DNA of 64,000 bases from positions 2,966-66,965 of the forward strand of contig JAKFCD010000056.1 of assembly GCA_036676805.1 (NCBI GenBank), given 5' to 3'. The translations under genes were made by a program, and so were the position numbers. Source of the stretch: Elusimicrobiota bacterium. Its GTDB lineage: Bacteria > Elusimicrobiota > Elusimicrobia > UBA1565 > UBA9628. The notes beneath the pieces are model-generated. The model made no database searches. It was not told where the DNA came from and saw nothing but the letters and a program-made list of their open reading frames with translations. Of the stretch, positions 28,456-49,387 are shown piece by piece; positions within the stretch are counted from its first letter, which is position 1; the number at the start of each line of letters is the position of its first letter.

Positions 28456-28468
28456 TCGAAGCATCCCG

Positions 28469-28505
28469 CCCGGCCCGCGGCTGCTCTCGCCGCGGACCGG
28501 CCGGG
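28469..28505. terminator. GC-rich hairpin between the convergent HEPN and ssb genes
   Basis: CCCGGCC-CGCGG...CCGCGG-ACC-GGCCGGG; no clear U-tract. Confidence 0.3.
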
Positions 28506-28512
28506 ACCGTGT

Positions 28513-29339: not shown

Positions 29340-31216
29340 TGTCCACCTCCGTTATCGTTAAACGTCTCATAGACGGCTCCCGCCCGGACCATCGCGTCCA
29401 TGAGGGAAGCCGCGTCCGCGTCGGCGGCGTCGCGCCGCCGCAGCTCGTCGAGCAGGTCCCGTGCCCGCTCCGCGTCCTTCTTCGTCCAGGCCACGGCCGC
29501 GAGGTAATAGAGCTTGCGGACGTAGATGCGGTCCTTGGGACTCAGGCGCGAAACCGCCGCGTAGTCGCGCCGCGCCGTGTCCAGGACTTGCGCCGCCGCC
29601 GCGTCGTCCGGGTAGGAACGCGTGAGCGAGAACGCCGCGAGCAGCGCGCGGCCGTGCTCCCCGGCCTTCCGGGCTGCGTTGATGGCCCCTTCGAGTCTCG
29701 TGCGGTGCTCCTTAGAAGAGCGGTAGGTCTCGACTTTCAACTTGCGCGCCGAGGCCACCGCCTGGGTGCTCGCCGCCACGGACTCAAGCCATTCAATGTC
29801 GAGCGCTGCCTCCGCGTCGAGGCCGCGAGCCAAGGCCGCGCGGACATCTTCCGTACCGGCGGAGACGATCTCCGCCGAGACGGCCTTGCGGGCCTCGGGG
29901 TCGAGTTTCCCGGCGATGCGCCGCGCCAGGTCGAGAAGGTATTCGTGGTCCGGGGTCTTGTAGCGCAGAAGCATGGCGAGCATGCGATAGGTCTCCGCCG
30001 TATCTCCGGCCATTGCCTGTTTGTCGAGCTGCGCCCGCAGCCGGCGGATGTCCTCGCGCCGGCTCACTTCCAGCGAGCGGCGGTGCAGTTCGCGCGCTTC
30101 TTGGTCCTCCGGCTTGAGCAGCGCTGCCGAGGCCAGGCTCTCGACGGCCTCCTCGTAGCGCTGGTCTTTGAACAGCTCCCGGCCGCGCGCGAAGGCCTCG
30201 CCGCCGAGCGCCTCGGAGCGCCCCTTGGCGCGGGCGTACTCATCGTCCTGGATCTCCGCCGCCGGCGCGGCGGGCGCGCTCGCGGCCTTGAGGAAGCGGT
30301 AGGTGAGCGTGAAACGGTGGTTCTTGGCGAGGGGCCGGTCCTCGAGAGCGTAGTCCACTCCGAAGCGTCCGTCGGCGGTCTTGAAGCCCACGCCGACGGC
30401 GAAGCCCTCGTCGAGACCGAAACGCAAGGTCAGCACGTCCTGCAGCGTATAGGAGGCTCCGAGACCCATGCGTAGCTCGGTCTCGCCGACGAGCTTGCTC
30501 AGGCCCACGCCCAGCATCGCCCGGTCCTTGCGGATCGAGCCTGCGGTGAGGGACACGCGCGAGAAGCCGTCGAAGGAGACGCTCACGCCGCCGCGCAGCT
30601 CGCGCGGCAGGACCTCGGGGTCCGAAGCGAGCTTGAGGCGAGGCGTCAGGAGGTTCTTGATGACCGCGCCCGCCGACCACAGGGGCCGTCCCAGCCACCA
30701 CGCGTCGTCGCTTGAGGACTCGAAGCGCGCTCCCGCGTCCGCGCCGAAGCCGCGGTCCTTGTGGCCCGCGAGGTTCGAGCTGAGCATGTTGAAGGTGCCC
30801 CCCGCCGCCCAATGGTCGCCGAAGCTCCTGGCGAAGCCCGCCATGTACTCAGCCTGCGAGGCCGCGACCTCATAGCCGGGGTCGTCAACGGCGGTACGCG
30901 CCGTGATCTCTCCGCGGTAGAGCTGAAGAGCGCCCAGGCCGAAGGTTCCCAGGCGCGAGGGAACGGTGAGGCCGATGAAATCGTAGCGGGCCCCGTCATA
31001 AAGGAATTGGTGCTCGCCGGTCACCGCCCCGCCCGCGCCGGCCAGGCCCGCCGGGTTCCAGTGGAGCGCGGTCGGGTCCTGGACCACGGACACGGCGGCG
31101 CGGCCCAGGGCCGCGCCCTGCGCGCCGGGGCTCTGGCTCATGATCGTAGGCGCGGCGTACAACGGCAGGGCGCCGAGGTAGATCATCAAGAACTTGTAGA
31201 GGAGGCTCGTCATCAT
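29336..31216 (-). CDS. PorV/PorQ (UPF0164)-like beta-barrel fused to a C-terminal TPR/helical region
   Basis: GAQGAALGRAAVSVVQDPTALHWNPAGL and DYALEDRPLAKNHRFTLTYRF, then TPR-like helices. Confidence 0.8.
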   Translation of the reverse strand: MMTSLLYKFLMIYLGALPLYAAPTIMSQSPGAQGAALGRAAVSVVQDPTALHWNPAGLAGAGGAVTGEHQFLYDGARYDFIGLTVPSRLGTFGLGALQLYRGEITARTAVDDPGYEVAASQAEYMAGFARSFGDHWAAGGTFNMLSSNLAGHKDRGFGADAGARFESSSDDAWWLGRPLWSAGAVIKNLLTPRLKLASDPEVLPRELRGGVSVSFDGFSRVSLTAGSIRKDRAMLGVGLSKLVGETELRMGLGASYTLQDVLTLRFGLDEGFAVGVGFKTADGRFGVDYALEDRPLAKNHRFTLTYRFLKAASAPAAPAAEIQDDEYARAKGRSEALGGEAFARGRELFKDQRYEEAVESLASAALLKPEDQEARELHRRSLEVSRREDIRRLRAQLDKQAMAGDTAETYRMLAMLLRYKTPDHEYLLDLARRIAGKLDPEARKAVSAEIVSAGTEDVRAALARGLDAEAALDIEWLESVAASTQAVASARKLKVETYRSSKEHRTRLEGAINAARKAGEHGRALLAAFSLTRSYPDDAAAAQVLDTARRDYAAVSRLSPKDRIYVRKLYYLAAVAWTKKDAERARDLLDELRRRDAADADAASLMDAMVRAGAVYETFNDNGGGQ

Positions 31217-33741
31217 TTCACCACCAGGAGGAAGAAGGTCGCCGTCTCGGAAGGCCCGTCGAAGCGTACGCGGCCGACATAGCTGCCGTTCATGAGGGCG
31301 CGGCCGTGCCGGTCGCGGCCGTCGAAGCGGACCTCGCTGATGCCGGGCGGCACGCGGCCGTAGTCGCGCTCGTAGAGCGTCGTGCCGAACTCGGAGTAGA
31401 TCGTGAGCACGGCGCGCTGGTAGCCGGAGGACGGCGCATTGAAGACGACATTCGTTCCCCCTCGGGCCGGGTTGAATGGGTTGGGGTAGTTGTAGACGCG
31501 CGGGAAGCTGTCCGCCGCGGCCAAGGTGAACAGCTGCAGCGGCGTCTGGCTGGACGCCCCATACGGGTTCTCGGCCGTGACCTTGAAGTAATAGCTGCGG
31601 TAGTAGTCGAGGCCGGTGAGGCGAAGGCGCACCGTGTTCCCGTCCTCCAGCGCCTCGGCCTGGGGTTTGGCCGCCAGGGCCGTGGTGTGCAGCGCGCTCG
31701 CGCCGGCGGCCTGCTCGACGCGGGCGACGGCCGACAGCTCCAGCGGCGAGCCGCCCAGGTAGGCCGTGTAGGAGATGGGATCGCCCTGCGGGTTCGTCAC
31801 GCGCTCCCAGGAGACCTCGACGCCGTCGCGCATGGTCTTGACCGTCGGCGCCGCCATGAAGGGCGCGGTCAGTCGCAGAGGGTCGGGCGGGTCATTAAGG
31901 AAAGTCGCGATGAAGGTCCGAGTCCCCGCGTCGGACACGCCGCCCACTCCGTCGACCGCGACGACGCGCCAGTAGAGGGTCGTGCCGTAGCTGAGGTCGA
32001 GCGGGTAGAAGGTGAACACGCCTTCTTGGACCAACACCGAGGCGGTGGGATCAGTCGAGAGGTAGACCCGATAGCTCACCGGGTCCTCATCGGCATCCTC
32101 CGATTCGAGCCAGCGGAGGTCATAGCGGCTCGCGCGCGTCGAGATCGCGCCGGTCGAGAGATAGAGCGGCGTGGTGGGCGGCGTGTTGCGAAACAGCGGG
32201 GCGTAGCTCTGCTCAGCGCCGCCGTCCATGAGGCTCTCGGCCTGATAGTCGTCCCGAGCGCGGACCGACCAATAATAGGTCGAACCGAAGGCGAGGCCGG
32301 CCACGGTCATGGCGGACGCGGTCGTGGTCGCGATCGCGGGCTGGGCCTGATCGTGGCGCCGCCAAGACACTTCGTAGACCGGCACGTCGCCGTCCGGGTC
32401 CGTCGCCCGGGTCCAGGAGAGGACCACGGAGGCGTCTCGCGTCACCACGCTGCCCGTGCCTTTCATGACGGTGAACGGCCCGGGCGGGACATTCGTGAGC
32501 CCGAGGACGAAGTTCTCGACCGAGGAGGCGCGGCTCTGAAGAGGCAGACCAAGATACGAGTCCCGCGCGGTCACGCGCCAGTAGTAGGTCGTGCCGAAGG
32601 CGAGCGGCGCCGTCACGAAGTCCGCAGTCTCGGAGGTTCCGGTGCTGTTGAGGACGAAGGGCTTGGTGCCGATCTCGAGCGCGTAAAGGATGGGGTCGCC
32701 GTCGTTATCCGTGGAGGATTGCCATCGCAACCACGCGGCGGAGGAGTGCTGGATCACCGCGCCGAGCGGCGCGGACGGCGCGGGGACGGTGGGCCCCTCG
32801 TTGAGGACCATGCGGCGCAGGGGCGCACGGCCCGCGGAAGTCAGGTAAAGAATGCGTCCATCCCACGCGGAGCCGATCGCGGAGTCGGCCGTCAAAGTCG
32901 TCACCGGGCTGCCGCCGGATGTTAGCTTGACCACGCCCTGCGGGCAGCCGCCGGGACCGCACGCCAGTTGGCTCAAGTAGAGCGAGGAGTCTCCGTCCAG
33001 CCACATGCCCCGCGGATTCGCCAAGCCGCCGAACCAGGAAGCGGGGGTCTGGCTCTCAAGGGAGCCGTCGCTCGTGAACCGCAGGATCTGTTGGCAGGAG
33101 ACGTCAGCCACGACGAGCTCCTGCTGGAGGCCGACGGCGATCTTGGAGGGCGTATAGCAGCTGGTCGGGGTGGCGCTGATGCCGGGCAGCTCGACTTGGC
33201 TAAGAAGATTTCCCGCGAAGTCGTAGGCGTTGACGTAGCCCTTCATGCCGCTTGCCGGACAAGGACAACCCAGACATTGGACGCAGTAGTAGCTCTTCTG
33301 ATTTTGGAAGCTCAGGTGGAGGCGGGCCCCGACCTTATCGATCGCGGCCGACATAAGGCTCGCAGTGCTGATATAGGCCCCTAGCGAGTATGTGGATTGG
33401 CCAAGGGAGTAGCCGGTATTGAGGAAGCGCTTGAGCGTTATGCCGCCGCCCCCCTCCAGGATATCCACGACGCCCGAGGGCTCCACGGCGAAGGCCAGCG
33501 GCGCGCTGACGCCCGCGGCGAAGCTGAACAGCGGTTCGAGACTCGGCGTCCGGAAGGCCGTCACCGAATAGCTTGTCGCTCCCGGGGCCAGCATGAGGGC
33601 GTAGAGATTGCCCACCGAATCGCGGTCGAGGCCGGCGATGGTGGAGCCGGCCACGCTGAATGTCGCCTGTTCCACATAGGACGCCGCGCGGGCGGACGCG
33701 GCCGCCGCGGCGGCCATGACGACGAGGATGAGTTTCTTCAC
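31213..33741 (-). CDS. Secreted protein with beta-propeller-like N-terminus, Fn3-like repeats and a T9SS-CTD/FlgD-Ig-like C-terminal domain
   Basis: Signal peptide; repeated L.W..S.D.DGD...Y.....TYYWRV.A units; C-terminus VYNYPNPFNP...IYSEFG...FDGRDRHG..LMNGSY. Confidence 0.8.
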   Translation of the reverse strand: MKKLILVVMAAAAAASARAASYVEQATFSVAGSTIAGLDRDSVGNLYALMLAPGATSYSVTAFRTPSLEPLFSFAAGVSAPLAFAVEPSGVVDILEGGGGITLKRFLNTGYSLGQSTYSLGAYISTASLMSAAIDKVGARLHLSFQNQKSYYCVQCLGCPCPASGMKGYVNAYDFAGNLLSQVELPGISATPTSCYTPSKIAVGLQQELVVADVSCQQILRFTSDGSLESQTPASWFGGLANPRGMWLDGDSSLYLSQLACGPGGCPQGVVKLTSGGSPVTTLTADSAIGSAWDGRILYLTSAGRAPLRRMVLNEGPTVPAPSAPLGAVIQHSSAAWLRWQSSTDNDGDPILYALEIGTKPFVLNSTGTSETADFVTAPLAFGTTYYWRVTARDSYLGLPLQSRASSVENFVLGLTNVPPGPFTVMKGTGSVVTRDASVVLSWTRATDPDGDVPVYEVSWRRHDQAQPAIATTTASAMTVAGLAFGSTYYWSVRARDDYQAESLMDGGAEQSYAPLFRNTPPTTPLYLSTGAISTRASRYDLRWLESEDADEDPVSYRVYLSTDPTASVLVQEGVFTFYPLDLSYGTTLYWRVVAVDGVGGVSDAGTRTFIATFLNDPPDPLRLTAPFMAAPTVKTMRDGVEVSWERVTNPQGDPISYTAYLGGSPLELSAVARVEQAAGASALHTTALAAKPQAEALEDGNTVRLRLTGLDYYRSYYFKVTAENPYGASSQTPLQLFTLAAADSFPRVYNYPNPFNPARGGTNVVFNAPSSGYQRAVLTIYSEFGTTLYERDYGRVPPGISEVRFDGRDRHGRALMNGSYVGRVRFDGPSETATFFLLVVK

Positions 33742-35486
33742 GACTTCACCTCCGAAGGTTCGCCTGATCCGTAGTCCGGGACGGCCGCACGCAGGTCGAG
33801 GCCGCTTTCCGCCTCGGCGTCCACGGGCCGCAGGGGCGGCACGGCGAGGGTCCGCGCGACCTCACGCACGCGCGCGGTGCGGACTAAGCACTCGGCCCGG
33901 CCGGGCGAGAGCACGAGCGCCGTGCCGGGCTCCAAGGACTTGAGCTGGTTGGGGTGGACCTTGAAGCGCTCCACCTCGCGGCGCGAGCGGTCGCCGGTGC
34001 GATGGTCTCCCAGGAGCGCGCTCTCCACGCGCTCCGTGTCGCTCGTCGTCGTGCGCGTGCCGAGGGTCGTCGCCCAAAACTCGGCGTCCTCCGGGTTCGG
34101 CGAGCGGAAGCAGACCTTGCAGCCGGAGGTGTTATTGAAGACCACGGACTCGAAGGCCGCCACGTCCATCCCCTCCACGCGCTTGAGCTGCCCCAGGTCC
34201 TGGTGCGAGAGGATCGTGCGCAACCTGGCCGAGCCCACGGTCGCCACGAAGGAGGCGAAGACCGGCGTCGCGAACTCGGCGAACTCGTCGAGGATCACGG
34301 TGGCGGGTCCGGGCTTGGGCTCGGTGCGCTGGCGCGCGGCCGCCACCGACAGGAGCCCCGAGATCACCATGCGCCCGAGCGGATTGGCGAGCACCTGGAG
34401 ATGTCCCACGGGGACCGCGAAGTAGGCGGCGTGGCCGCGCTCGAAGATGTCCTCGAGGCGGATCTGGGGCGAGTAGCTGTTGAGGATTTCACCCAAGGCG
34501 CCGGTCGTCCATGGCCGGAAGGCCGAGATGAGAGCGCTGCAGTCGGGGTTGGCCGTAAACTCCTCGCGAGCCAACTTCACCATGCGCTGGTCGCGGCAGA
34601 GCCTGAACGCCTCCGTGCGAGCCTCAGGAAAGGCGAAGTAGCAGTAACAGTCGCGCAGCGTGAAACCCCGGCCGGTCGAGCAGAACACCTCGGCCATGCT
34701 CTGCACCTTGGCGTAGTCGACCGCGCGGTAATAGTCCTGCCCCTCGCCGGAGGAGGTGGGTTCGCGGCCGATGGCGCGGGCGATCTGGTTCGCCACGGCG
34801 GTCGCGTCCTGGCCGGAGACCGGCCGGATCGGGTTGAAGGTCATGGAGCGGTCGTCCTGAGGGTTGAAGTAGCGCACCGAGTCGAGCCGTCCGGCGACCC
34901 CGGCGGTCTTGAGGAACTGGTCGAAGTCGCCGCGGTCACCCTTGGCTTCCATAAAGAAAAGAGGCAGGCCCGCCTTCATGTCCTGGGCGGCGAGCGCCAG
35001 CAGGAGCTGGGACTTGCCCGACCGAGTCGGACCCACGACCTGCATATGCCCCTCGCGCTCGCGCTCGGTGAGGTTGATCCGGCGCTTGGAGCTGGTCAGC
35101 CCCAGGAAAGTCTCCTCGCCCCGCCCCGATTGCAGCCGCCGGCCGAGTTCCTCATCCACGATCTTGGAATCCGCGGGCGTCTCCCAGTCCTCCTCGTCCT
35201 GAGCCGTGGCCTTTCGTCCGGCGGCTCCGAGCCCCACGGCCGCGCCGAAGCAGGCTGACGCCGCCGTCCAGCCGAGCCGAACGACGCTCCGGCGCGGCTC
35301 GTACCAGCGGCCGAAGTCCCGGTGAGCGCCGCTCAACCAGTCCACCGTCCGCCACGGCATGAGGGCCACGAACAGGGCGGCGGCGAGCCCCGTCAGCGCC
35401 CCGCCGAGCGCCCGGCGCTCGCTGCGCAGGCCGGTCAGGCCCGCGAGCATCACGGCCATGACGGCGAGGAAGGACCAGGGGCTCAT
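33738..35486 (-). CDS. virD4: VirD4-like type IV coupling protein
   Basis: N-terminal TM segments, VGPTRSGKS, VILDEF and ILSHQDLGQL. Confidence 0.9.
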   Translation of the reverse strand: MSPWSFLAVMAVMLAGLTGLRSERRALGGALTGLAAALFVALMPWRTVDWLSGAHRDFGRWYEPRRSVVRLGWTAASACFGAAVGLGAAGRKATAQDEEDWETPADSKIVDEELGRRLQSGRGEETFLGLTSSKRRINLTEREREGHMQVVGPTRSGKSQLLLALAAQDMKAGLPLFFMEAKGDRGDFDQFLKTAGVAGRLDSVRYFNPQDDRSMTFNPIRPVSGQDATAVANQIARAIGREPTSSGEGQDYYRAVDYAKVQSMAEVFCSTGRGFTLRDCYCYFAFPEARTEAFRLCRDQRMVKLAREEFTANPDCSALISAFRPWTTGALGEILNSYSPQIRLEDIFERGHAAYFAVPVGHLQVLANPLGRMVISGLLSVAAARQRTEPKPGPATVILDEFAEFATPVFASFVATVGSARLRTILSHQDLGQLKRVEGMDVAAFESVVFNNTSGCKVCFRSPNPEDAEFWATTLGTRTTTSDTERVESALLGDHRTGDRSRREVERFKVHPNQLKSLEPGTALVLSPGRAECLVRTARVREVARTLAVPPLRPVDAEAESGLDLRAAVPDYGSGEPSEVKS

Positions 35487-36292
35487 CGCGCGGCCTCCGC
35501 CGCGCCCAAAGTGATCGCGCGGCTTTCCACCGCCCCCTGGAACACGCCGCAGCCCGCGGACCGGCGGAACTCGTCCAAGCCGCAGGCGTAGACGAAGGGC
35601 GCGCGCTGCGCGCGGGCGTTCTTAAGGATGATGGCCGCCCCTCCCGGCCAACCCGTGAGGTATAGGACCGCGCCACCGCGCGTCAGGCGGCGTCGGTAGG
35701 TCTCGAAGATGTCCTCATAGCGTCGCTTTGACTTCTGTGTCAGCTCCACCTCGATCGCCTTGGGCTCGGGCGACTCGATCCAGAGGTCGGAGGCCCCCTC
35801 GACCACGAGGCGCCGGCGGCCTCCCGTGTGCGTCCAGACGGCCTTAGGGTGCTGGCGGGCGGCGGGCAGGCCCAGGACTTCCGTGAGGACCAGGCCCACG
35901 GCGGAGACCTTCAGCTCGTGGCGGATCATGGCCTCGCTCACGAAGTCGCGGATCTCGGGACGACGCTCCACCGGCTCGTCGCGCAGCGCGTTAAAGCCCC
36001 GCTCGGTCAGCGTATAGGCCTTCGGCTGGCGCAGGAAGGAGTGCCCGTTGATATAGCCTTGGGCCTCCAGAGCGTGGACGCGGTTGAAGACGCCGAGTTT
36101 GTAGTCCTCTCGCTCCATCTTATTGAAGAAGCGCTCGATGAGCTCGGCCTCGCCCAACTTCGGCTCCAGGCCCAGCCCCACCATCTGGCCGATGCCGAGC
36201 ACGATCCACTTCTCAAGCGCCGCGAGCATCTTAAAGTCCCGCGCCGTGAGCTGGATTTCCCCGCGCCGTATCTCCGCCGCCGTCTTCGTCAT
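35483..36292 (-). CDS. Replication-relaxation (MOB-C-type) relaxase
   Basis: LTARD..ML..L, YTLTERG, HELKV and D-x11-E-x-E (SDLWIESPEPKAIEVEL). ATGA overlap with the T4CP. Start reassigned to ATG 36292. Confidence 0.75.
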   Translation of the reverse strand: MTKTAAEIRRGEIQLTARDFKMLAALEKWIVLGIGQMVGLGLEPKLGEAELIERFFNKMEREDYKLGVFNRVHALEAQGYINGHSFLRQPKAYTLTERGFNALRDEPVERRPEIRDFVSEAMIRHELKVSAVGLVLTEVLGLPAARQHPKAVWTHTGGRRRLVVEGASDLWIESPEPKAIEVELTQKSKRRYEDIFETYRRRLTRGGAVLYLTGWPGGAAIILKNARAQRAPFVYACGLDEFRRSAGCGVFQGAVESRAITLGAAEAAR

Positions 36293-36299
36293 CTGTTGA

Positions 36300-36625
36300 G
36301 TTCTCCCTCTGTTGCCGCTGCTGTTTTTCCGTTCCCTGTCTTTCCCTTCCGTCTTTTCTCTTTTGTTTCCGTTGCTGCTGTTGTTGCCGTTGCTGTTGTT
36401 ATTTTTCTTTCTCTTTCCCCTTTGCTGCCTTTTGCCCTCTGTCCTCCTGACCCCTTCATCCCACACCACTCTTTTGTGGTTGGGAGGGAGGGGTCAGGAG
36501 GCGAACGCGCCAACGGCGCGGACGAAGAGGGCAAGGTTTGGCAGCAATATCCGTGACTTCCCGCCCACTACCTTTCTGACTCCCCCCTCGGACATGCCCG
36601 AGGACCCGCCCGAGGGGTCCTTCTC
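36300..36625. other. Candidate oriT region
   Basis: Non-coding gap between the RHH gene and the relaxase, containing a pyrimidine-rich tract and a 13-bp inverted repeat CCTCCTGACCCCT/AGGGGTCAGGAGG (36443-36455/36489-36501). Confidence 0.5.
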
Positions 36626-36838
36626 CTACTCCGTCGCGCTGAGGCTCTTGGCGTAGTGCTGGATCGCCTCCGAGATCAGCCGGTCACGCGGAACGTCCTC
36701 GCCCGTTTGCCGCATCTTCTTGATGCCCGCCTTGGCGAGGGTTTCGTGGTCCGCCACCGGCAGGTTCACCATGATCGCCACCGTCTTCGGCGGCCGGCCG
36801 CCGCGCGGGGCGGTTCCGGTTTCCGTGGGCTCATCCAT
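36626..36838 (-). CDS. Ribbon-helix-helix-like relaxosome accessory protein
   Basis: 70 aa; TVAIMVNLP strand then helices (RDRLISEAIQHY); AAGGAG SD; upstream of the relaxase. Confidence 0.65.
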   Translation of the reverse strand: MDEPTETGTAPRGGRPPKTVAIMVNLPVADHETLAKAGIKKMRQTGEDVPRDRLISEAIQHYAKSLSATE

Positions 36839-36977
36839 GCTCGTTTTCTCCTTGCGCGCTGCGATCTTGAGGACCAAACTTGCAGGGCAGGTGGGGAAGC
36901 TTGCTCCCCGGTTTCGTTCGGACTGGCTACCCGTCTGCCCGCAAATCGGCCCGGCACTTACCTATCGGACGAGCCGG

Positions 36978-37706
36978 TCAATTCCGCACATTTCCCAACA
37001 GCGGAGCGGCCCAATCCCGCCGCTTGATGTAGCGCCAGCGCGGGTCCTGTTTGGCCGCCACCACCGTTCGGCGGCGGACGGTTTCATCCTCGCGGGCGAT
37101 CAGGATATCGAGCGGGTCCTGGTCTTCGAGGCGGTGGGACAGGGGCTCGAACGACGGGATTTCCCCTTCGCCGCCTTCCACGTCCGCGCCGCCGAAGCTC
37201 GGGCCGAAGGCCTCGTCCACCAGCACGAACTTGCCGCGTCGGTAGGCCTCCCCCTCCATGTAGTCCCGGGCGTTGCAGACCAATGCCGTAAAGAATCCCG
37301 GGATGTTCGCTGCTCCCTCAAGGAGTTCCCGGTAGGTGTCGGAGGCGACGATCTCGGACGCCGCTGAGTCACCGATGATGGCCCGCGCGAACCTCACTAT
37401 CTCGCGATGCCTGGACTTGTAGAAAGCCGCGGCTTCCTGGTAGCGGCGCAAGCGGTCCTGTCGCGCCTGGCGGACGATCTGGGCAAGGAACTTCGGGGAG
37501 TGTTCCTCCCAGTGATTCAGGCCGCGGAACTCGCGCGCCAACTTCTCGACTCGCTGCCGGGAGAGCAGTTCGAGGACGACCTTCTCGGGATCGAGGCAGG
37601 GTTTGAGGCGGACCAGGAGCGCGGCGGCGCGGTGCGAGAGCTCGACGTCCCGGCTGATGGAATCAACGGAGGAGGCAACGGCGACGGCATTGTGCATGTG
37701 GGCCAC
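36978..37706 (-). CDS. Putative transcription regulator with HTH-like N-terminus and ECF sigma region-2-like segment
   Basis: ELSHRAAALLVRL; YKSRHREIVRFARAIIGDSAASEIVASDTY resembles ECF sigma2; no sigma4 is visible. Confidence 0.45.
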   Translation of the reverse strand: MAHMHNAVAVASSVDSISRDVELSHRAAALLVRLKPCLDPEKVVLELLSRQRVEKLAREFRGLNHWEEHSPKFLAQIVRQARQDRLRRYQEAAAFYKSRHREIVRFARAIIGDSAASEIVASDTYRELLEGAANIPGFFTALVCNARDYMEGEAYRRGKFVLVDEAFGPSFGGADVEGGEGEIPSFEPLSHRLEDQDPLDILIAREDETVRRRTVVAAKQDPRWRYIKRRDWAAPLLGNVRN

Positions 37707-37933: not shown

Positions 37934-37955
37934 AGGGATCAATTTTCATGCAGTT
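37934..37955 (-). promoter_or_regulatory. Shared motif copy D upstream of the mobilisation/transfer operon
   Basis: Minus strand AACTGCATGAAAATTGATCCCT. Confidence 0.65.
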
Positions 37956-38011: not shown

Positions 38012-39061
38012 TTAGGCGGACGCCTGTCGGCGCTTGCGGAGGTTGCCGAAGCCTAGTTCGGTGCGATACTGCGCGATGGAACGGAGTGAAAGCCGGACCT
38101 GGTAAAGGCGGTCGATCTTGCGGCCCAGTTCTTCATCCGTCGCGTCGGGATATTGGCGAACGAGATCGTGGAGGCGATCCCGGATCAGGGATTTACGGCT
38201 GGGAACGAGCGTCTTCATCGGCGCCTCAAGTCCCCACGGAAGCTGGATCGACTTGTTCGAGATCAGGCGGTTGAGGACGCTCGGCGTGATGTCGAGCTTG
38301 TCCGAGAGCTCACGCTGGGTCAGGGGACGGCGTTGTCCCGGTTCGCCGCTGACGAAGAACGGCGCCTGGGCCGCGATCAGCGCTTCGAGCACCCGGTAGA
38401 GCGTGCTCTTGCGGCGGTCCAGCAGGCCGAGGTCCCGGAGAAACCCCTCCAGGCGACGCGCCTCCGGAGCGGGAAGGTCTTCGAGCATTCTGCGGCTCTT
38501 ATCCTCGTCTACCTGATAGTATCCCTTCCAAATCTGGCGATTAAAGAAGGCGAGCCCAGGTTTCCCCTTCTCCACGGTTATCCCCGCGACCGCGCTGTAG
38601 GTCTTCGCGGGCGCGGCGGACGACGCGGCCCCATCGAACTCGGCTTGGACGTACAGTTTGTTGACCAACTCCCGCAGCCGCCCGGCTTCCTCTTTCGAAA
38701 TCCGGCATACGCGCGCGCGCTCGTCGTCCGTGTAGCCCTCGTCGCTCAGGAAGAACTCCTGAAAACGCTTCTCTCCGACCTTCTGGAGGAGCCGGGCGAG
38801 GTCCCCTTGCCCGTCGAGCGCCGGGACGCCGTCGCTGGCCGTGCGAAGGCCCCAGCCCCCGAACCTCTGGGCCATGAAGCCCGCACCGGCATAAGGCTGG
38901 ACCGAGATCACCTTGGCATGAATGAGGCGCCGAAAGAGAACGTCGGCCTCGAGTTCGCGCACCCGGCCCGCGAAGTCCGCTTCGGGCAGCTCCAAGAGGC
39001 GGGCCAGCTTGATGCCGACCTGGACGCTGCCCCGGCCCGAAGTCGAGGCCCGGAACGTCAT
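38012..39061 (-). CDS. Divergent, compact sigma-54 (RpoN)-like factor
   Basis: Region-I-like LARLLELPEADFAGRVRELE, HTH RPLTQRELSDKLDITPSVLNRLISNK, and RpoN-box variant SLRSIAQYR. Confidence 0.85.
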   Translation of the reverse strand: MTFRASTSGRGSVQVGIKLARLLELPEADFAGRVRELEADVLFRRLIHAKVISVQPYAGAGFMAQRFGGWGLRTASDGVPALDGQGDLARLLQKVGEKRFQEFFLSDEGYTDDERARVCRISKEEAGRLRELVNKLYVQAEFDGAASSAAPAKTYSAVAGITVEKGKPGLAFFNRQIWKGYYQVDEDKSRRMLEDLPAPEARRLEGFLRDLGLLDRRKSTLYRVLEALIAAQAPFFVSGEPGQRRPLTQRELSDKLDITPSVLNRLISNKSIQLPWGLEAPMKTLVPSRKSLIRDRLHDLVRQYPDATDEELGRKIDRLYQVRLSLRSIAQYRTELGFGNLRKRRQASA

Positions 39062-39267
39062 TTCCGGCGGCCGCCGCGCAACACCGACGCGTAAGAGGCG
39101 ATGCGCTCGGCCACCGAGCGCGCCTGCTCCTCCATGAGCCGCACGAGCTCAAGCTCCCTGTCCGTGGGCACGCCGTGCAGCTGCGTCGCGGCCCGTTTGA
39201 GGTTGGAGCACTTGGCAATGACGTCGTGACACAAGTCCACCAGTTCGTCGGCAGGATTAGTCGCCAT
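39058..39267 (-). CDS. Stand-alone HisKA/DHp-like small protein
   Basis: 69 aa; LCHDVIAKCSNLKRAATQL...LELVRLMEEQARSVAERI resembles an H-box two-helix hairpin; overlaps both neighbours. Confidence 0.5.
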   Translation of the reverse strand: MATNPADELVDLCHDVIAKCSNLKRAATQLHGVPTDRELELVRLMEEQARSVAERIASYASVLRGGRRK

Positions 39268-40615
39268 CGTTCTTGCTCCGATGCTTTCCGGTCCGCTTGA
39301 GCGACTTGTAGAGCAGGCCCGTGTCGATCTTCAAGTCGGCCATGACCTTGGTCTTGCGGCCCTCGTTGTCCGTCAAGCTGCGCTGGATCGCCCCGTCCTC
39401 GAAACGATTGACCGCGGCGTAGAGGCCGTTCTCGAGGATATAGCTGTATTGCTGCTCGGTCAGGAACTCGTCGGAGGACTGGCCCGCGCGGGTCGTCGCC
39501 AAGATTTGACGCGCCGCATCCGCGGTGACGCGCCCCGAATCGCCGCCCGCCGCCAAGTCCACGAATTTCTTGAGCTCGCGGACGTTGCCCTGCCAGTCGT
39601 GACGCAATAGCAGCTGTTTCGCATCCGCCGTGAACGACAGTCGCAGCCCGCCGCGGTTGAAGAAGGCGATCAGCGGGAGGATGTCGGCCTTTCGCCTGGC
39701 CAAGGGCTTGAGCTCGATGGTCAGGCCTTGGACACGTTGGAGGAAGTCGAAGCGCAGGCACCCCTTCTTGACGAGGTTCTGGAGGTTCTCCAAGGTCGCG
39801 CTGATGATCCGGAAGCGGGACTTCACGGCACTGTCCGCTCCGAGTGGATAGAAGGCCTTCTCCTCGATGGCCTTGAGAAGCTTGGTCTGCATCGCAAGGC
39901 TCATGGAACCGATCTCGTCCAAGAAAAGCGTTCCCCCGTCCGCCAGGAGGAGCTTGCCCTTGCGTCCGTCCGCGGCGCCGGTGAAGGCGCCCTTGCGGTA
40001 GCCGAACAACTCCGCTTCCAGCAGATCCTCCGTGTAGGCCGCGCAATTGATCGCGACGAACTGCCCTTTCCGTCCGGACCGGCCATGGATGACTTCGGCC
40101 AAGCTCGTCTTGCCGGTGCCGGAGGGCCCCAGGATGATGACCGGCAGTTCCGAGGCTGCGTACTTGAGGGTTTCGGCGACGTTGGCGCGCGTGGCCGCGT
40201 CCTCAGTGACGAACAGGTCTTGGAACAGGCGGTCCTCGCCGCTCTGCGGGCTCTTCCGGAGGAAACGCGCGATGACCGCGCCGACGTTCTCCTCCTCGTT
40301 TCCCTTGGCGTAGAAGTCGTCGCAGCCCAGCTCGTAGGCGCGCTCAACCACCGCCTCAGAGTCATGGCCGGACATGACCACGCAGTAGGCCCCCGCCTTG
40401 GCCGCCATGGGGACCAACTCCAGGCCGGACTTGTCGTCCGACTTGCCGCTGAGCTTGAGGTCGATGAAGCAGATGTCGTTGCGGCGGGCGCCGATCTTCT
40501 TGCGGCCGGCCGCCAAGTCCGAGGCGAATTCAACATCATGCTCGCTCAGCTCCCCCTTCACGAGTTCGCGAGCGAGCGGATCGTCCTCAATGACCAAGAC
40601 CTTGAGCTTTCTCAT
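39257..40615 (-). CDS. NtrC-family sigma-54-dependent response regulator (bEBP)
   Basis: REC (VIEDD, FIDLKL), AAA+ GPSGTGKT, ELFGYRKGAFTGA, FLDEIG, WQGNVREL and a C-terminal HTH. Confidence 0.95.
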   Translation of the reverse strand: MRKLKVLVIEDDPLARELVKGELSEHDVEFASDLAAGRKKIGARRNDICFIDLKLSGKSDDKSGLELVPMAAKAGAYCVVMSGHDSEAVVERAYELGCDDFYAKGNEEENVGAVIARFLRKSPQSGEDRLFQDLFVTEDAATRANVAETLKYAASELPVIILGPSGTGKTSLAEVIHGRSGRKGQFVAINCAAYTEDLLEAELFGYRKGAFTGAADGRKGKLLLADGGTLFLDEIGSMSLAMQTKLLKAIEEKAFYPLGADSAVKSRFRIISATLENLQNLVKKGCLRFDFLQRVQGLTIELKPLARRKADILPLIAFFNRGGLRLSFTADAKQLLLRHDWQGNVRELKKFVDLAAGGDSGRVTADAARQILATTRAGQSSDEFLTEQQYSYILENGLYAAVNRFEDGAIQRSLTDNEGRKTKVMADLKIDTGLLYKSLKRTGKHRSKNDGD

Positions 40616-40703: not shown

Positions 40704-40725
40704 AACAGCATGAAAATTGATCACT
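40704..40725 (+). promoter_or_regulatory. Shared motif copy A upstream of the rSAM operon
   Basis: AACAGCATGAAAATTGATCACT, identical over 22 nt to copy B. A weak GG-N10-GC (40696-40709) overlaps it. Confidence 0.7.
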
Positions 40726-40759: not shown

Positions 40760-42778
40760 ATGATCGAGACCAACCCCGAAGCGAAAGTCCTGCTGGTCAG
40801 CATGCCGTTCGGCCCCCTCAACATGCCCTCGATCGGTCTTTCCCTGCTCCAAGCCTGCTTGAAGGACAAGGGCGTCGCGTCGCAATGCCTTTACATGACC
40901 ATCCCCTTCGCCAAGGCCATCGGCGCCGACCTCTACAACGAAATCACCTCCGGCAAGCCGGACTCGGCCGACATGCTCGGCGAGTGGATCTTCGCCGAGA
41001 CTTTGAGCCCCGGCCGCACCGACCCGGACGCCTACCTAAAGAACGTCCTACACGCCGGAGGCAAGAAGCCCGCCGACATCGATGCGATTTTCGCCAAGGC
41101 GCTTGGGGCCCGAGATCAGGCCGCGGCTTTCATCGAGCGCTGCGCCCGGGAAATCCCCTGGGGCCAATACCGCGTCATCGGCTTCACGAGCATTTTTCAG
41201 CAGAACGTCGCCTCTTTGGCGCTCGCCAAGCGCATCAAGGCCGCGCACTCCCAAGTCACCATCGTATTCGGCGGCGCGAACAGCGAGGGCGTGATGGGGC
41301 TTGAAATGCTCCGCAACTTCCCGTTCGTCGACGCGGTGGTCTCGGGCGAGGGCGAGATCGCTTTCCCCCAACTCGTCCTGCGCCTTTTGGAAGGCGAGTC
41401 CATTGAGGCCGTCCAGGGCGTCTTCACGCAGGCGAACTGCCGGCAGGCGTTCCCCCCGAACGCGCGACTCACCGCCCCGTCGCCCAAGACGATGGACGAC
41501 CTTCCCATCGTGGACTACGACGACTACTTCGGCCAGCTCCACGCCAGCGGCCTCGACATCACGCACGATCTCCGCCTCCTCTTTGAGACCTCGCGCGGCT
41601 GCTGGTGGGGCCAGAAATCCCACTGCACCTTCTGCGGCCTCAACAGCTCCAACATGGCCTTTCGCGCCAAGTCCCAAGAGCGCGCCTTGTCCGAGCTCGA
41701 AGGCATGCTCGCCCGCTATCCCGGCATCGAGGTCTCGGTCGTGGACAACATCCTCGACATGACCTACTTCCAGCGCTTCCTCCCCGCTCTGCGGGACAAA
41801 GGCGGAAAGTCCGACCTGTTCTACGAGGTCAAGGCGAACCTGCGCAAGGAGCAACTCCAGCTCATGCGCGAGGCCGGCATCACCAAGATTCAGCCGGGAA
41901 TCGAGAGCCTGAGCAGCGCCGTGCTCAAGTTGATGCGAAAGGGCACGACTGGCCTCCAGAACGTGCAGCTCATCAAGTGGTGTAAGGAGTTGAACATCAC
42001 CCCCTACTGGAACATCCTCTGGGGCTTCCCCGGCGAGGACGCGGCGGAGTATGAGAAGATGGCGCGCTGGATCCCCCTGCTGACTCACCTGCCGCCGCCC
42101 GGCAGCACCGCGCAGCTCCGCCTGGACCGCTTCAGCCCCAACTTCGACCAATCGGCGGCGCTGGGCTTCAAGAACGTCCGAGCGCGGTCCTCCTACGGCC
42201 ATCTTTATCCGACCTTCAGCGAGGAGTCTCTGCACAAGGCCGCCTATTACTTCTCCTTCGACTACCAGGACGGCCGCGACCCGCGAGGCTACGTCCGCTC
42301 GCTGCAGGACGCCGTCCAAACCTGGATCGGCGATTACCGCGAGAACGAGATGCTGTCCCTGGAAACCGAGGATGGGCTGCTCATCTGGGACCAGCGCGGC
42401 GCCGGCGAGCCCCGTCAATGGCTGCTGAAGGGCCGGGCGCGCGAGGTCTATGAGTCCTGCGACCAGATCCAGAGCGTGCGCGGCGTCGCCGCGCGCCTGG
42501 AAGCCTCCGGTAACGCGGAGTACGAGGCCGACATCGCCCGGCTCGCCCAGGCCATGGCGCGAGAAGGCCTGCTCCTCGAAGACAACGGCTTCTACCTCGC
42601 CCTCTCGATCCGCTTCGGCAACTACGCGCTGCCTGAGACCGTCCTGAGCCGTATCGCGACCGCGTTCGACCGCATGGGCAGCGGCGAACTCGATCTCTCT
42701 GAAGAAGCTCCGGGTCTGTACCACGTCCGGACGGCCGCCGCCGAGCCGCAATCGGCGCCGATCTGCGCTACGGCGTAG
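40760..42778 (+). CDS. RiPP-maturation B12-binding radical SAM enzyme (TIGR03975-like)
   Basis: LVSMPF...PSIGLSLL, GFTSIFQQNVASLALA, VFGGAN, ETSRGCWWGQKSHCTFCGLN, QPGIESLS, NILWGFPGE and LDRFSP. Confidence 0.92.
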   Translation: MIETNPEAKVLLVSMPFGPLNMPSIGLSLLQACLKDKGVASQCLYMTIPFAKAIGADLYNEITSGKPDSADMLGEWIFAETLSPGRTDPDAYLKNVLHAGGKKPADIDAIFAKALGARDQAAAFIERCAREIPWGQYRVIGFTSIFQQNVASLALAKRIKAAHSQVTIVFGGANSEGVMGLEMLRNFPFVDAVVSGEGEIAFPQLVLRLLEGESIEAVQGVFTQANCRQAFPPNARLTAPSPKTMDDLPIVDYDDYFGQLHASGLDITHDLRLLFETSRGCWWGQKSHCTFCGLNSSNMAFRAKSQERALSELEGMLARYPGIEVSVVDNILDMTYFQRFLPALRDKGGKSDLFYEVKANLRKEQLQLMREAGITKIQPGIESLSSAVLKLMRKGTTGLQNVQLIKWCKELNITPYWNILWGFPGEDAAEYEKMARWIPLLTHLPPPGSTAQLRLDRFSPNFDQSAALGFKNVRARSSYGHLYPTFSEESLHKAAYYFSFDYQDGRDPRGYVRSLQDAVQTWIGDYRENEMLSLETEDGLLIWDQRGAGEPRQWLLKGRAREVYESCDQIQSVRGVAARLEASGNAEYEADIARLAQAMAREGLLLEDNGFYLALSIRFGNYALPETVLSRIATAFDRMGSGELDLSEEAPGLYHVRTAAAEPQSAPICATA

Positions 42779-42810
42779 GAATAAAAAAACACGTCGCAAA
42801 GGAGAACCCC

Positions 42811-42960
42811 ATGAACCCGTCCCTTCCCGAGAGCAAGACCAAGATTCGCCTCAACAAAGAGGAGCTGCTCGCCAAGCTCTCGTCCGGCCCCGCCTCCGTC
42901 AACGGAATCGACAAATCGGGCCGCAACACCATCCACGTCAGCGTCGGCGTGGGAGCCTGA
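42811..42960 (+). CDS. 49-aa putative RiPP precursor peptide (below the ORF-track cutoff)
   Basis: AAGGAG SD then MNPSLPESKTKIRLNKEELLAKLSSGPASVNGIDKSGRNTIHVSVGVGA*, directly after the rSAM gene. Confidence 0.8.
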   Translation: MNPSLPESKTKIRLNKEELLAKLSSGPASVNGIDKSGRNTIHVSVGVGA

Positions 42961-42970
42961 ATTAAAGATG

Positions 42971-43009
42971 GTCGGGGAGGCTGGCCTTCGCGGGCCGGCC
43001 TCCCCGATC
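42971..43009 (+). terminator. Stem-loop between precursor and MFS genes
   Basis: GTCGGGGAG-G-GCTGGCC-TTCGCG-GGCCGGC-CTCCCCGAT; likely an mRNA stabiliser or partial terminator. Confidence 0.55.
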
Positions 43010-43031
43010 TCTTCCCCAAATTAACTATCTT

Positions 43032-44237
43032 ATGAACCTGAGCTACCGTCAAGAATTTCGGCGCCTCGTCGCGGGCTACGCCCTCTCCACCCTTGGGGAC
43101 GCGGGCGTAAGGATGCTCCTCGTCTGGATCACTTTGGAGCAACGCGGAGCCGTGGCGATGAGCGGCGTTTTCATCGCCGCCGCCGGGGCCTCCGTGTTCG
43201 GGCCCTATGCCGGGCGCAGCCTCGACCGCTACCCGGCGCGGTACATCCTGAGCGCGACCTGCGTAATACGCTTCGCCCTCATACTGGCTCTCGTCTTCAT
43301 GGATTCGCAGTCGATCGCGCGGTACGCCGTACTCTTCGCCTTCTTGAACGCGTTCTTCACCCTCGCCTTTGGGCCGGCCGTCGCTAAGACGATTCCCGCC
43401 ATGTTCACCCCGGATAAAATGCCCGAGGCAAACGCCTCATGCGGCGCCTCATTTCTCATCGCTTCGGCGGCAGGACCGGCGCTCGGCGGCGCCGTTCTTG
43501 CGCGTTTCGGGCCAAGCGAAGCTTGCGCGGTCTTCGCCGCGGTCCTCCTAGTCACCGCGCCTCTCTCGTATTTCATCGCCTTCCCGGTTGCAGCGGCGCA
43601 AGACGGCAAGGAGAAGATCGCGAGCGGCTACGCGGAAGGGTTCCGCATATTGGCGACGATGCCGGTCGTCCTCGTGCTCCTGGTCCTCGGCACAGCCCTG
43701 AACTTCGCGTTGGCGCCGATCAACGTGGCTCTCGCCCCGCTCATGCTCTCTCTCGGGACGGGCCCTCAGGGTTTCGGTTTCGCCATGGCCCTTTTCGTGG
43801 CCGGCGCCGTGGGCGGCAACTTCCTCGCGGGAAGACTTCTGAGGTCGGCAAGCTGGGAACAATCGGTCTTCGCCAGCCTGGGAGCCATCGCGTTCGGACT
43901 CGTCGCCGTCAGCGTGAGCCAAACTCCGGTCCAGGCCGCGATCGCCATCCTGGTCATCGGGACCGCCATTCCCTTCTTCCAGATCCCCGTCGCCACGCAG
44001 CTTCAGCGATTCGTTCCGTCCGCGAACGCGGGCCAGGTGTTCGCCTCGGTCAACTCCGTTACCCTCTTCGCGGCGCCGTTGGCGGCGGCGGGAGCCGGAG
44101 CATTGCTCAAGTGGTTTTCCCCGCCGCTCCTGTTCTCCGGGGCGGCGGTCTTATGCGCCGTGCTGTGTCTGGGTTGGGGGCTTTTTAAGCGACAGCAGGA
44201 AAGGGCGGCGCCTTTGCTTGACTCCAATTTCAGCTAG
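43032..44237 (+). CDS. MFS transporter (macrolide-efflux-like), probable exporter
   Basis: About 12 hydrophobic segments; GPYAGRSLDRYPAR motif-A-like; GPALGG. Confidence 0.88.
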   Translation: MNLSYRQEFRRLVAGYALSTLGDAGVRMLLVWITLEQRGAVAMSGVFIAAAGASVFGPYAGRSLDRYPARYILSATCVIRFALILALVFMDSQSIARYAVLFAFLNAFFTLAFGPAVAKTIPAMFTPDKMPEANASCGASFLIASAAGPALGGAVLARFGPSEACAVFAAVLLVTAPLSYFIAFPVAAAQDGKEKIASGYAEGFRILATMPVVLVLLVLGTALNFALAPINVALAPLMLSLGTGPQGFGFAMALFVAGAVGGNFLAGRLLRSASWEQSVFASLGAIAFGLVAVSVSQTPVQAAIAILVIGTAIPFFQIPVATQLQRFVPSANAGQVFASVNSVTLFAAPLAAAGAGALLKWFSPPLLFSGAAVLCAVLCLGWGLFKRQQERAAPLLDSNFS

Positions 44238-48450: not shown

Positions 48451-49387
48451 CCGCTGGTCCCTCGACCTGAATCTCATCCGCAAGGGCGGCGCGCAGATAA
48501 AGTCCCCGCTGACCGGCCGCACTGAGCAGTTGAATTGGTCGGTCATCAAAGTTCCCGCGAAACTCCTTCCGATCTCCGTGGTCGAATGCCGTCTCGTAGG
48601 CATGGGCCGAACAGTCTACGGCTACGGCGACAGCCTGCTCTATACGGACTCCCTCACCCAAGCCTTCGCCGAGGCCTGGGAACGCCTATGGTTCGACCTT
48701 CATTGCGACGACCCAAACGGAGTCAGCGGCCCGCTTCGCAGTAGCAACGGCTTCGCCTGCGGAGCAACGCCACAAGAGGCCGAGGCGGCCGCACGATCCG
48801 AACTGATCGAGCGCGCCGTATATTTGACGGCCTGGAACGCGCGCAATGGCTGGGTCCCGATCACATCGACCGGACTCTTGAACCGGGTTCTACTCGCGTC
48901 CCTCGATGTCCTCGGCTGGGAAATCGCGTTATTCCGCCTGTCAGAGGAAACATTGGGCGATGTGATTTGCGGGCTGAGCACCCGAAAAACCGGCGGAGTG
49001 CTCTTCGACTGCGTCTATCAGCGGCAAGGCGTCGCTATGGGGCAGGCCCAATCGAAGGTGCTGCGTTCGCTTCTCAGATCCGCCGTCGTCCTTGGCAATT
49101 CCCCCGCCTCTTATGCGCCGCTTCCCGAGCGCGGCGGCCCTTCCTCGCATAGAGACTTCTATATGGAGCCGGCTAACCTCGTCGCCTTCGATTTCTTGAA
49201 GGAGCGGCTATCGATGGCCGAACGAGTTAAACTAGACGGCTGCGATCATACCGAGACCCGTATCCTTGTCGATATCGAAGGATTCCCCTGCGTCGCGGCG
49301 GCGACGAATCCACATTGGCCCGTTCTGAGCTGGGGCAAAGAATCGCTTAAAGAGGGAGGCAATCCATGGCCGCATCCTCTCGCCTGA
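48431..49387 (+). CDS. Compact YcaO-family protein
   Basis: AFAEAWER, SSNGFACG...EAEAAARSELIER (ATP-binding motifs) and a Pro-rich C-terminus NPWPHPLA. Confidence 0.85.
   Translation: MKSSGSSRWSLDLNLIRKGGAQIKSPLTGRTEQLNWSVIKVPAKLLPISVVECRLVGMGRTVYGYGDSLLYTDSLTQAFAEAWERLWFDLHCDDPNGVSGPLRSSNGFACGATPQEAEAAARSELIERAVYLTAWNARNGWVPITSTGLLNRVLLASLDVLGWEIALFRLSEETLGDVICGLSTRKTGGVLFDCVYQRQGVAMGQAQSKVLRSLLRSAVVLGNSPASYAPLPERGGPSSHRDFYMEPANLVAFDFLKERLSMAERVKLDGCDHTETRILVDIEGFPCVAAATNPHWPVLSWGKESLKEGGNPWPHPLA

Follow-up and report, generated by a model that had tools for sequence, protein, structure and literature searches.

A compact sigma-54-like protein with an altered promoter motif, encoded with its activator and a DHp-like mini-protein on integrative and conjugative elements of Elusimicrobiota

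Sigma-54 is normally the product of a single chromosomal gene, and the RpoN box of the protein reads the -24 element of its promoters; we know of no substrate of the activators bearing a GAFTGA motif other than the sigma-54 holoenzyme. Promoter recognition by sigma-54 has been treated as essentially invariant. The locus described here, together with some 120 relatives, provides a natural counter-case, in which the two residues that read bases have changed in step with the corresponding promoter bases, on a mobile element and within genomes where paralogues of the standard type are present as well. It lies in a stretch of 64,000 nucleotides from an Elusimicrobiota bacterium (assembly GCA_036676805.1, contig JAKFCD010000056.1; the whole stretch is referred to below as the window), on an integrative and conjugative element (ICE), and consists of three overlapping genes:

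39257-40615, minus strand: bacterial enhancer-binding protein (bEBP, or EBP; 452 aa), with a receiver (REC) domain, an AAA+ sigma-54 interaction domain, an AAA lid and a C-terminal tail resembling a Fis-type helix-turn-helix (HTH)
39058-39267, minus strand: mini-protein (69 aa) resembling a dimerisation and histidine phosphotransfer (DHp) domain; a candidate histidine phosphotransfer protein
38012-39061, minus strand: compact sigma-54-like protein (349 aa) with a match to Sigma54_DBD

We propose, with a probability of about 0.6, that a family of Elusimicrobiota ICEs has this trio as its regulatory core, gated by a phosphorelay, dependent on an enhancer-binding activator and possessed of its own promoter code. 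The whole analysis is computational, and draws on contigs from metagenome-assembled genomes (MAGs) and metagenomes.

In its overall plan the trio follows canonical sigma-54 and its NtrC-type activators (Escherichia coli, Klebsiella and Aquifex; 5UI5, 5NWT and 7QWP), with which it shares the extra-long helix (ELH) and HTH, the RpoN-box domain, the -24/-12 promoter geometry and a REC-AAA+ partner bearing GAFTGA. Unlike canonical sigma-54, of some 400-500 aa, the window protein has 349 aa, with Region I and the N-terminal core-binding subdomain undetectable; R455, H377 and K460 are replaced by Leu, Thr and Gln, the promoter has the form (A/T)G...GA with a conserved A-tract spacer, and the gene shares an ICE-borne operon with that of its activator. 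Several paralogues in one genome, with activators of their own and discrimination between promoters, are known from RpoN1-4 of Cereibacter (Rhodobacter) sphaeroides, of which RpoN1 and RpoN2 differ in the reading of position -11 (PMC11999139). Those proteins, however, are full-length, have three domains and recognise canonical GG and GC, whereas here it is the core GG and GC that have changed, and the compact genes are co-transcribed with an activator on a mobile element. In engineered E. coli sigma-54, the replacements R456H, R456Y and R456L switch the neighbouring G and create mutually orthogonal promoters (NAR 2025, PMC12096077); the same paper argues that nature settled on R456 and TGGCA without diversifying, and asks why. 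The window protein is a natural analogue of these mutants, in that one Arg of the RpoN box has been exchanged and one G of the GG changed, but the exchange is at the adjacent Arg (R455) and the 5' G, and is accompanied by a second change at the reader of the -12 element.

In Mesorhizobium loti, rpoN2 encodes a full-length sigma-54 that reads standard promoters. This second RpoN copy is carried by ICEMlSymR7A and is described as working with NifA on nitrogen-fixation genes (PMC3538637), so that there too an ICE-borne sigma-54 gene and an EBP drive cargo genes of the ICE; unlike the window trio, the pair is described there without any link to transfer genes or a DHp mini-protein. The mini-protein recalls the phosphorelays Spo0F-Spo0B-Spo0A and CckA-ChpT-CtrA, in which a DHp-like His protein with a helical hairpin stands between receivers, and the window locus likewise encodes a hybrid kinase and single-domain receivers. 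Unlike Spo0B and ChpT, it comprises the hairpin only (57-69 aa in its family), without a catalytic and ATP-binding (CA)-like domain, and phosphotransfer through it is putative.

The genes of the trio are as given in a preliminary description of this DNA, including the intact GAFTGA motif of the activator, the length of the sigma-54-like protein and its RpoN box, SLRSIAQYR. The EBP and mini-protein genes overlap by 11 nt, and the mini-protein and sigma-54-like genes by 4 nt (ATGA). All three open reading frames (ORFs) are judged to be coding because GC at third codon positions (GC3, 0.81-0.87) is far above that at second positions (GC2, 0.41-0.46), as is typical of genes. The EBP is matched by Response_reg PF00072 (1.7e-10), Sigma54_activat PF00158 (5.3e-54) and AAA_lid_14; its Walker A motif reads GPSGTGKT, the acidic pair D11/D12 and D52 are readable in the receiver, and against NCBIfam it gives only sub-threshold matches, to many EBP families. 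Gene linkage was assessed in a set of 77 loci, drawn without redundancy from genomes and MAGs; all related loci of named source are from Elusimicrobiota. The sigma-54-like gene has an orthologous EBP (identity above 50%) as its neighbour in 44 of the 77 and the mini-protein in 31; GAFTGA is kept in 43 of the 44 EBPs, which bears out the trio as a conserved module. The orthologues also conserve a tail, 'RNLxENxGKKTKxLxDLKISTRLLYxSLKR', that by eye resembles a Fis-type HTH. In 32 of the 77 loci a homologue of the window kinase is encoded no more than 10 kb from the sigma-54-like gene. Two architectures recur, one in which EBP, mini-protein and sigma-54-like genes are co-directional, as in the window, and one in which the EBP gene is divergent from that of the sigma-54-like protein. 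The position of the trio on a conjugative element, directly upstream of transfer genes, is likewise as first described, and related loci share the ICE backbone: some twelve loci have genes for p242, p83, p328, the coupling protein and the fn3 protein at a distance of no more than 10 kb. In some loci cargo is inserted between trio and backbone, and other trios flank biosynthetic clusters with a kinase, either ATP-grasp/AMP-ligase or resembling non-ribosomal peptide synthetases (NRPS-like, indigoidine-type).

The promoter code is visible as a motif of 16-17 nt, C(A/T)GCAT-N5-TTGATC, of which AGCATGAAAATTGATC is the 16-mer common to both intergenic regions flanking the trio. Written as cAGCAT-GAAAA-TTGAT, it pairs base for base, with identical spacing, with the canonical TGGCAC-N5-TTGCW, and departs from it by GG to (A/T)G at -24 and by GC to GA at -12. 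The window contains five matches, where 0.14 would be expected from shuffles, and four of these are strong, with position weight matrix (PWM) scores of 32-33; a PWM scan of the 64 kb revealed no site of the GG type.

40706..40722, plus strand: P1, CAGCATGAAAATTGATC, 37 nt upstream of a radical-SAM gene for a ribosomally synthesised and post-translationally modified peptide (RiPP), divergent from the EBP gene; PWM 33.3
37937..37953, minus strand: P2, CTGCATGAAAATTGATC, 59 nt past the stop codon of the sigma-54-like gene and about 230 nt upstream of p242; PWM 32.8
53467..53483, plus strand: P3, CAGCATGAAAATTGATC, 46 nt upstream of the gene for a single-domain response regulator (53530-53949)
55340..55356, plus strand: P4, CAGCATAAAAATTGATC, 53 nt upstream of the gene for a second single-domain response regulator (55410-55817)
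20339..20354, minus strand: degenerate copy, GACATGAAAATTGATC, overlapping the start codon of the integrase gene, the ATG being part of the motif; two mismatches; PWM 19.4

Shine-Dalgarno sequences are present between motif and start codons. The copy near the integrase was not counted as a site, being too degenerate in comparison with the other four; it could be a vestige, or a regulatory site of little strength, and its function is doubtful. Between P2 and p242 lies an untranslated leader of about 230 nt (37707-37936, minus strand), which measures 229-231 nt in loci L006 and L007 too, and a perfect hairpin, CCCTGA-TGGCG-TCAGGG, begins right after the -12 element of P2.

Across 124 non-redundant loci (1.41 Mb) there are 117 instances of the motif, compared with four in a shuffle, the form found in the relatives being mostly TGGCAT-AAAAA-TTG(C/A)TC. 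As judged with a crude gene caller, 81% of the instances are intergenic, compared with 18% of the sequence (p=4e-49), and most aim at a nearby start codon. Of 38 loci with a co-directional trio, 25 have the motif directed into the operon that diverges from the EBP gene, in the position and orientation of P1. Where p242 lies just downstream of the sigma-54-like gene, a motif stands between them in five of six loci; the P2-type motif is kept in this place in the window and in L001, L005, L006, L007 and L051. In loci of the divergent type, the motif in the shared intergenic region aims at the sigma-54-like gene in 25 of 30 cases (L042, L056, L059, L066, L041 and L031 among them), which suggests that the gene there activates its own transcription.

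That the compact proteins themselves recognise this motif is argued chiefly by the covariation of residues and bases. In canonical sigma-54, CTGGC at -25/-24 is read by R455 and R456, both termed invariant, and GC by H377, S379 and R383 (Ye et al. 2022, PMC9770992). The RpoN box of the window protein is LSLRSIAQYR, that of the family consensus SRRSIAQYR, and the canonical box ARRTVAKYR; since the E. coli box spans residues 454-463, Leu326 is the equivalent of R455, while R456 is kept and K460 has become Gln. Of the differences in the box to which the preliminary description drew attention, Leu in place of R455 is the only one that sets the clade of the window apart; the Ser, Ile and Gln are found throughout the family. 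H377 corresponds to Thr259, hhalign pairing 'ITPSVLNR' with 'VHESTISR'. In 113 loci available for the -24 test, the first -24 base is G in all 94 motifs where the R455 position is Arg, and A, T or C in 24 of the 27 where it is Leu, Ser, Ala or Cys (Fisher 2e-22, a value uncorrected for phylogeny). Neighbour joining places the non-Arg proteins in two sister subclades, which are split by L029 (Arg with GG), so that at least two correlated changes have taken place at -24. For the -12 base (A or C), residue 259 has the highest mutual information of all 349 columns (0.89): with Ser or Thr the motif has TTGA in 40 of 45 cases, with Asp, His, Leu, Glu, Ile or Val it has TTGC or TTGT in 66 of 68, and the tree shows several switches. 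Two unbiased scans thus land on residues known from structures to read these bases. The altered promoter specificity first proposed for this locus is supported in this way, the changes from GG to (A/T)G and from GC to GA covarying with the R455- and H377-equivalent residues, and in the clade of the window both readers have been replaced (R455 by Leu326, H377 by Thr259).

The window module is probably insulated from the paralogues that read GG and GC in the same genomes. Such insulation has a plausible purpose, since genomes with a copy of the Leu or Cys type also hold copies of the Arg type. Thus MAG RBG_16_66_12 has three Arg-type copies (L015, L016 and L070) beside one with Cys and AG (L051), with GG promoters seen in L015 and L016 and no motif found in L070; H52-bin097_1 combines L008 (Leu) with L024 and L029 (Arg), and GFS_5282 combines L005 (Leu) with L022 and L038 (Arg). 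Elusimicrobiota genomes have several copies each, three or four in several MAGs, so the single private copy envisaged in the preliminary description is not what is found: a HMMER search run exhaustively over 1.84 billion representatives gave at least 267 clusters at 50% identity (E<=1e-30), some of them chromosomal. In the best 150 of the 267 clusters most proteins are of 340-390 aa and match over nearly their full length, the rest being shorter fragments and a few longer proteins. A separate homology search gave 277 relatives; among the 120 listed, most have 330-385 aa, a few being shorter fragments, and those with a named source are mostly Elusimicrobiota MAGs. PF04552 is on record for all but one of these 120, sometimes with generic HTH families, and never with AID or CBD. 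The chromosomal members include proteins of Omnitrophota, next to a histidine kinase and an EBP with HTH_8, and of Aerophobetes, and the member in L004 sits among housekeeping genes. The compact sigma-54-like proteins are thus a large undescribed family, often found beside ICE backbones and biosynthetic cargo. A recent survey identified sigma-54 by stringent matches to three Pfam domains, with a cut-off of 2.8e-50 for the DNA-binding domain, a filter that the family would not pass. Locus L050 has two compact sigma-54 genes 9 kb apart on one contig (1983-2951 and 11348-12346), and in L037 a further piece of the gene, coding for 39 C-terminal residues, lies at 12168-12284.

The homology of the window protein to sigma-54 extends over residues 113-349. 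It matches Sigma54_DBD PF04552 over residues 214-346 (4.9e-14; 52.8 bits, the cut-off being 22.8), and TIGR02395 rpoN over the C-terminal third only. A family profile compared with the PDB finds sigma-54 chains over positions 212-346 only, the best being Aquifex sigma-54 (5UI5, 2.5e-16), and an AlphaFold model (pLDDT 75.7) has sigma-54 in all of its top 28 Foldseek matches. With hhalign, residues 113-349 pair with 224-470 of a canonical three-domain sigma-54 from Anaerolineae (98.6%); this portion takes in the C-terminal part of the core-binding domain (CBD) region, with its 'Y..PDV.V' beta element (residues 113-212, aligned to 224-330), followed by the ELH, the HTH and the RpoN domain. The first 112 residues, strongly conserved within the family, are specific to it and match nothing else. 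In Pfam the DNA-binding domain is the only part detected, with no match to the models of the activator-interacting domain (AID) and the CBD.

The mini-protein resembles a DHp domain, as had been suggested. Its family comprises 135 proteins of 57-69 aa, all those with a named source being from Elusimicrobiota, and in alignments of 23 and 31 sequences His14 is invariant, within 'L(I)HD(V)NSKC..LK.AA.LL'. Pfam HisKA is matched by five of 23 members, the window copy not among them (best E 4e-4), the family profile weakly matches the DHp region of ChpT in the PDB, and NCBI labels some members 'histidine kinase'. An AF2 model is a two-helix hairpin (pLDDT 90.8), for which Foldseek is unspecific, returning generic hairpins with the DHp regions of HK853 and EnvZ among them (E>0.5). 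In three loci the EBP and the mini-protein are fused in frame (L038, 8589-9962; L070, 8577-9950; L068, 3491-4807), the mini-domain replacing the C-terminal tail of the EBP, of which residues 1 to ~383 are present. The possibility that the mini-protein supplies in trans the part missing from the sigma-54-like protein is considered less likely, since the H-box, the HisKA matches and the fusion to the EBP speak for phosphotransfer. A potential source of phosphate lies in the cargo region upstream of the trio:

49366..51411, plus strand: hybrid histidine kinase, with H-box QVAHDIRSPL, HATPase_c and C-terminal REC-like domains

This kinase is likely to be the sensor that feeds the phosphorelay. In the mechanism that we propose, it would pass phosphate to the 69-aa DHp-like protein, possibly via single-domain response regulators, and the DHp-like protein would phosphorylate the GAFTGA activator on its REC domain; thus activated, that ATPase would remodel RNA polymerase carrying the compact sigma-54-like protein and seated at -24/-12-type promoters C(A/T)GCAT-N5-TTGATC. 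Four targets in the window would respond: the transfer-side operon, the divergent operon for RiPP biosynthesis and export, and the genes for the two single-domain response regulators, which would provide feedback. A His-Asp-His-Asp relay ending on the receiver of the EBP, with feedback through the receiver-only proteins, would be the most economical reading of these genes. The direction of phosphotransfer, the control of conjugation and the role of a master switch are put forward in the same conditional sense.

Several observations weigh against this proposal. Neither Sigma54_AID (PF00309) nor Sigma54_CBD (PF04963) is matched at E<=10 in five family members or in the N-terminal 217 aa of the window protein, and an hhalign comparison of residues 1-125 with canonical residues 1-240 found nothing (E 0.15); the sole trace of Region I is that residues 21-44 align below threshold with E. 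coli residues 22-46 (-3.6 bits). In the end Region I was not taken to be present on the strength of the segment 'KLARLLELPEADF..VRELE...LF', which resembles its end at the level of pattern only. The parts by which the canonical protein binds core RNA polymerase (RNAP) and answers to its activator are unrecognisable in the 349-aa protein, for which both functions are therefore presumed; only the genomic linkage to a GAFTGA EBP speaks to a role in holoenzyme and open complex. The last 100 aa of the EBP have no match to HTH_8/Fis HTH (PF02954) in Pfam at E<=10, and a search for 9-mers on both strands found no activator site shared upstream of the four promoters. P2 stands about 230 nt from p242, a gene whose product itself has no assignment in PDB, Pfam or PHROGs, and two ICEs with Arg-type paralogues (L070 and L080) show no motif before their p242 homologue, so that control of transfer may be specific to the clade. 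Behind the covariation at -24 stand about two evolutionary events, and GG is retained by three motifs in loci of the Cys type. With these points taken into account, the central idea of the preliminary description, an ICE-borne sigma-54/activator pair of altered promoter specificity, is largely supported.

A wider proposition, to which we attach somewhat less than even odds, is that a compact sigma-54 lineage lacking canonical Region I and the core-binding subdomain has naturally evolved orthogonal sigma/promoter pairs on Elusimicrobiota ICEs (R455 to Leu, Cys, Ser or Ala with GG to HG; H377 to Ser or Thr with GC to GA), and that these let co-resident elements run private, phosphorelay-gated programmes of transfer and of signal or RiPP production. 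If so, such pairs would be the natural, portable counterpart of the engineered orthogonal sigma-54 systems. The compact family bears on the minimal requirements for core binding and activator response, and the module offers a possible way for ICEs to couple transfer to a sensed signal. In practical terms, sigma, activator and a 17-nt promoter would be ready-made parts for orthogonal, tightly gated expression.

The alternative that survives best, though we consider it improbable, is that the module is a regulator of cargo, for example a quorum or signal-molecule circuit, that rides on ICEs without deciding excision or transfer. The claim that the trio is the master switch of the element must be qualified in the same light, for a promoter of the transfer operon is found in the window clade only, and the target conserved best across the family is the operon that diverges from the EBP gene (25 of 38), which is usually biosynthetic cargo. 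In L001, L002 and L081 this operon is a RiPP, ATP-grasp/AMP-ligase or NRPS-like cluster with exporter and kinase; some trios have no type IV secretion system (T4SS) genes within 10 kb, and the integrase has the degenerate site only. A pure cargo regulator does not, however, account for the conservation of P2, in the window and five other loci, before p242, the first gene of an array that reaches the coupling protein and the T4SS, nor for the recurrence of the ICE backbone beside trios.

Slightly less probable again is the view that the 349-aa protein is no sigma factor but a free-standing DNA-binding regulator, a repressor or placeholder at operators of -24/-12-like form, perhaps in competition with another sigma-54, while the EBP serves some other sigma-54 of the cell. 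The Aquifex sigma-54 has 398 aa, some 50 more than the window protein, and the minimal core-binding region of the E. coli protein, at about residues 120-215, corresponds to the N-terminal half of the CBD, which along with the AID is undetectable here. The covariation, moreover, proves reading of DNA and not recruitment of polymerase. Against this stand the tight linkage to a GAFTGA EBP throughout the family, the homology that residues 113-212 still show to the C-terminal CBD region, with the ELH retained, and the strong conservation of the N-terminal 112 residues, as well as motifs that lie at a promoter-like distance and orientation, 37-53 nt from starts with a Shine-Dalgarno sequence between. 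In addition, ~1.1 Mb of Elusimicrobiota loci showed no RpoN box of the canonical kind, and Elusimicrobium minutum is listed as without sigma-54 (Francke et al.).

Least probable of the three is that these are simply the ordinary multi-copy compact sigma-54 of Elusimicrobiota, Omnitrophota and Aerophobetes, with Leu/Thr and AG/GA arising by neutral drift and giving no insulation: the family is large, with some members in core-genome contexts (L004, the Aerophobetes chromosome, Omnitrophota) and most keeping Arg and reading a near-canonical TGGCAT-N5-TTGC, but loss of R455 together with the G is unlikely to be neutral because sigma-54 engineered at the adjacent R456 no longer recognises GG promoters (PMC12096077), the four strong promoters of the window are all altered, with no GG-type site in its 64 kb, and genomes with non-Arg copies carry Arg copies too.

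The element that carries the trio is recognisable as an ICE by matches of window proteins to Phage_integrase, T4SS-DNA_transf/TraG-D_C, TraC/P-loop_TraG and TrbI. The principal genes on the two sides of the trio are as follows:

20410..37706, minus strand: transfer-side array, 3' of P2, of p242, p83, p328, T4SS coupling protein, fn3 surface protein, a 626-aa protein, single-stranded DNA-binding protein (SSB), VirB4/TraC and TrbI/VirB10
33738-35486, minus strand: T4SS coupling protein
24946-27384, minus strand: VirB4/TraC
20729-21409, minus strand: TrbI/VirB10
19305-20351, minus strand: tyrosine integrase, after the transfer-side array
40760..44237, plus strand: cargo operon, 3' of P1, of RiPP-maturation radical-SAM C-methyltransferase (TIGR03975, 659 bits), a 49-aa ORF and a major facilitator superfamily (MFS) exporter

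The backbone gene order of the transfer-side array is also found in L001, L006, L007, L009 and L080. Like p242, for which NCBIfam gives only a faint 'sigma_mbnA' match (0.043), p83 and p328 have no assignment in PDB, Pfam or PHROGs; no relaxase family is matched among the window proteins, p328 having only a faint MobC-like match (0.015). Sigma-70-type promoters and terminators at 27-41 kb are no more frequent than in shuffles, and no convincing flanking direct repeats of att type were found in the window. GC falls from ~75% to ~62% at ~9.7-10 kb, where a tRNA-Ser(GCT) gene is found (11703-11794, minus strand), and climbs again beyond ~58 kb; the tRNA gene and the GC break (~10-12 kb) probably mark one border of the island. 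The high-GC flanks contain huge ORFs, presumably host genes, at 14-8158 (plus strand, 2714 aa) and 59024-63949 (minus strand, 1641 aa), with GC3 of 0.87-0.96. Between the tRNA and integrase genes, at 12205-19163, lies a cluster resembling anti-phage defence, which encodes a DUF5677 protein, a 774-aa AAA_13/SMC-like ATPase and a 347-aa protein with a CAP12/Pycsar-type TIR effector domain (1.4e-40).

Upstream of the trio, further cargo genes encode a tetratricopeptide repeat (TPR) protein, an SBP_bac_5 protein and a YcaO-like protein, in addition to the hybrid kinase. The 49-aa ORF of the cargo operon (42811-42960, plus strand; …NTIHVSVGVGA), directly 3' of the radical-SAM gene, is a candidate precursor peptide, and L001 has a 46-aa ORF in the same place. 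The island also contains two 2'-dG-II purine riboswitch aptamers (Rfam RF03165), at 46569-46639 (plus strand, 83.8 bits) and 53305-53375 (minus strand, 77.3 bits); one precedes an 81-aa ORF and the SBP_bac_5 gene, and the other a 156-aa ORF (52755-53225, minus strand).

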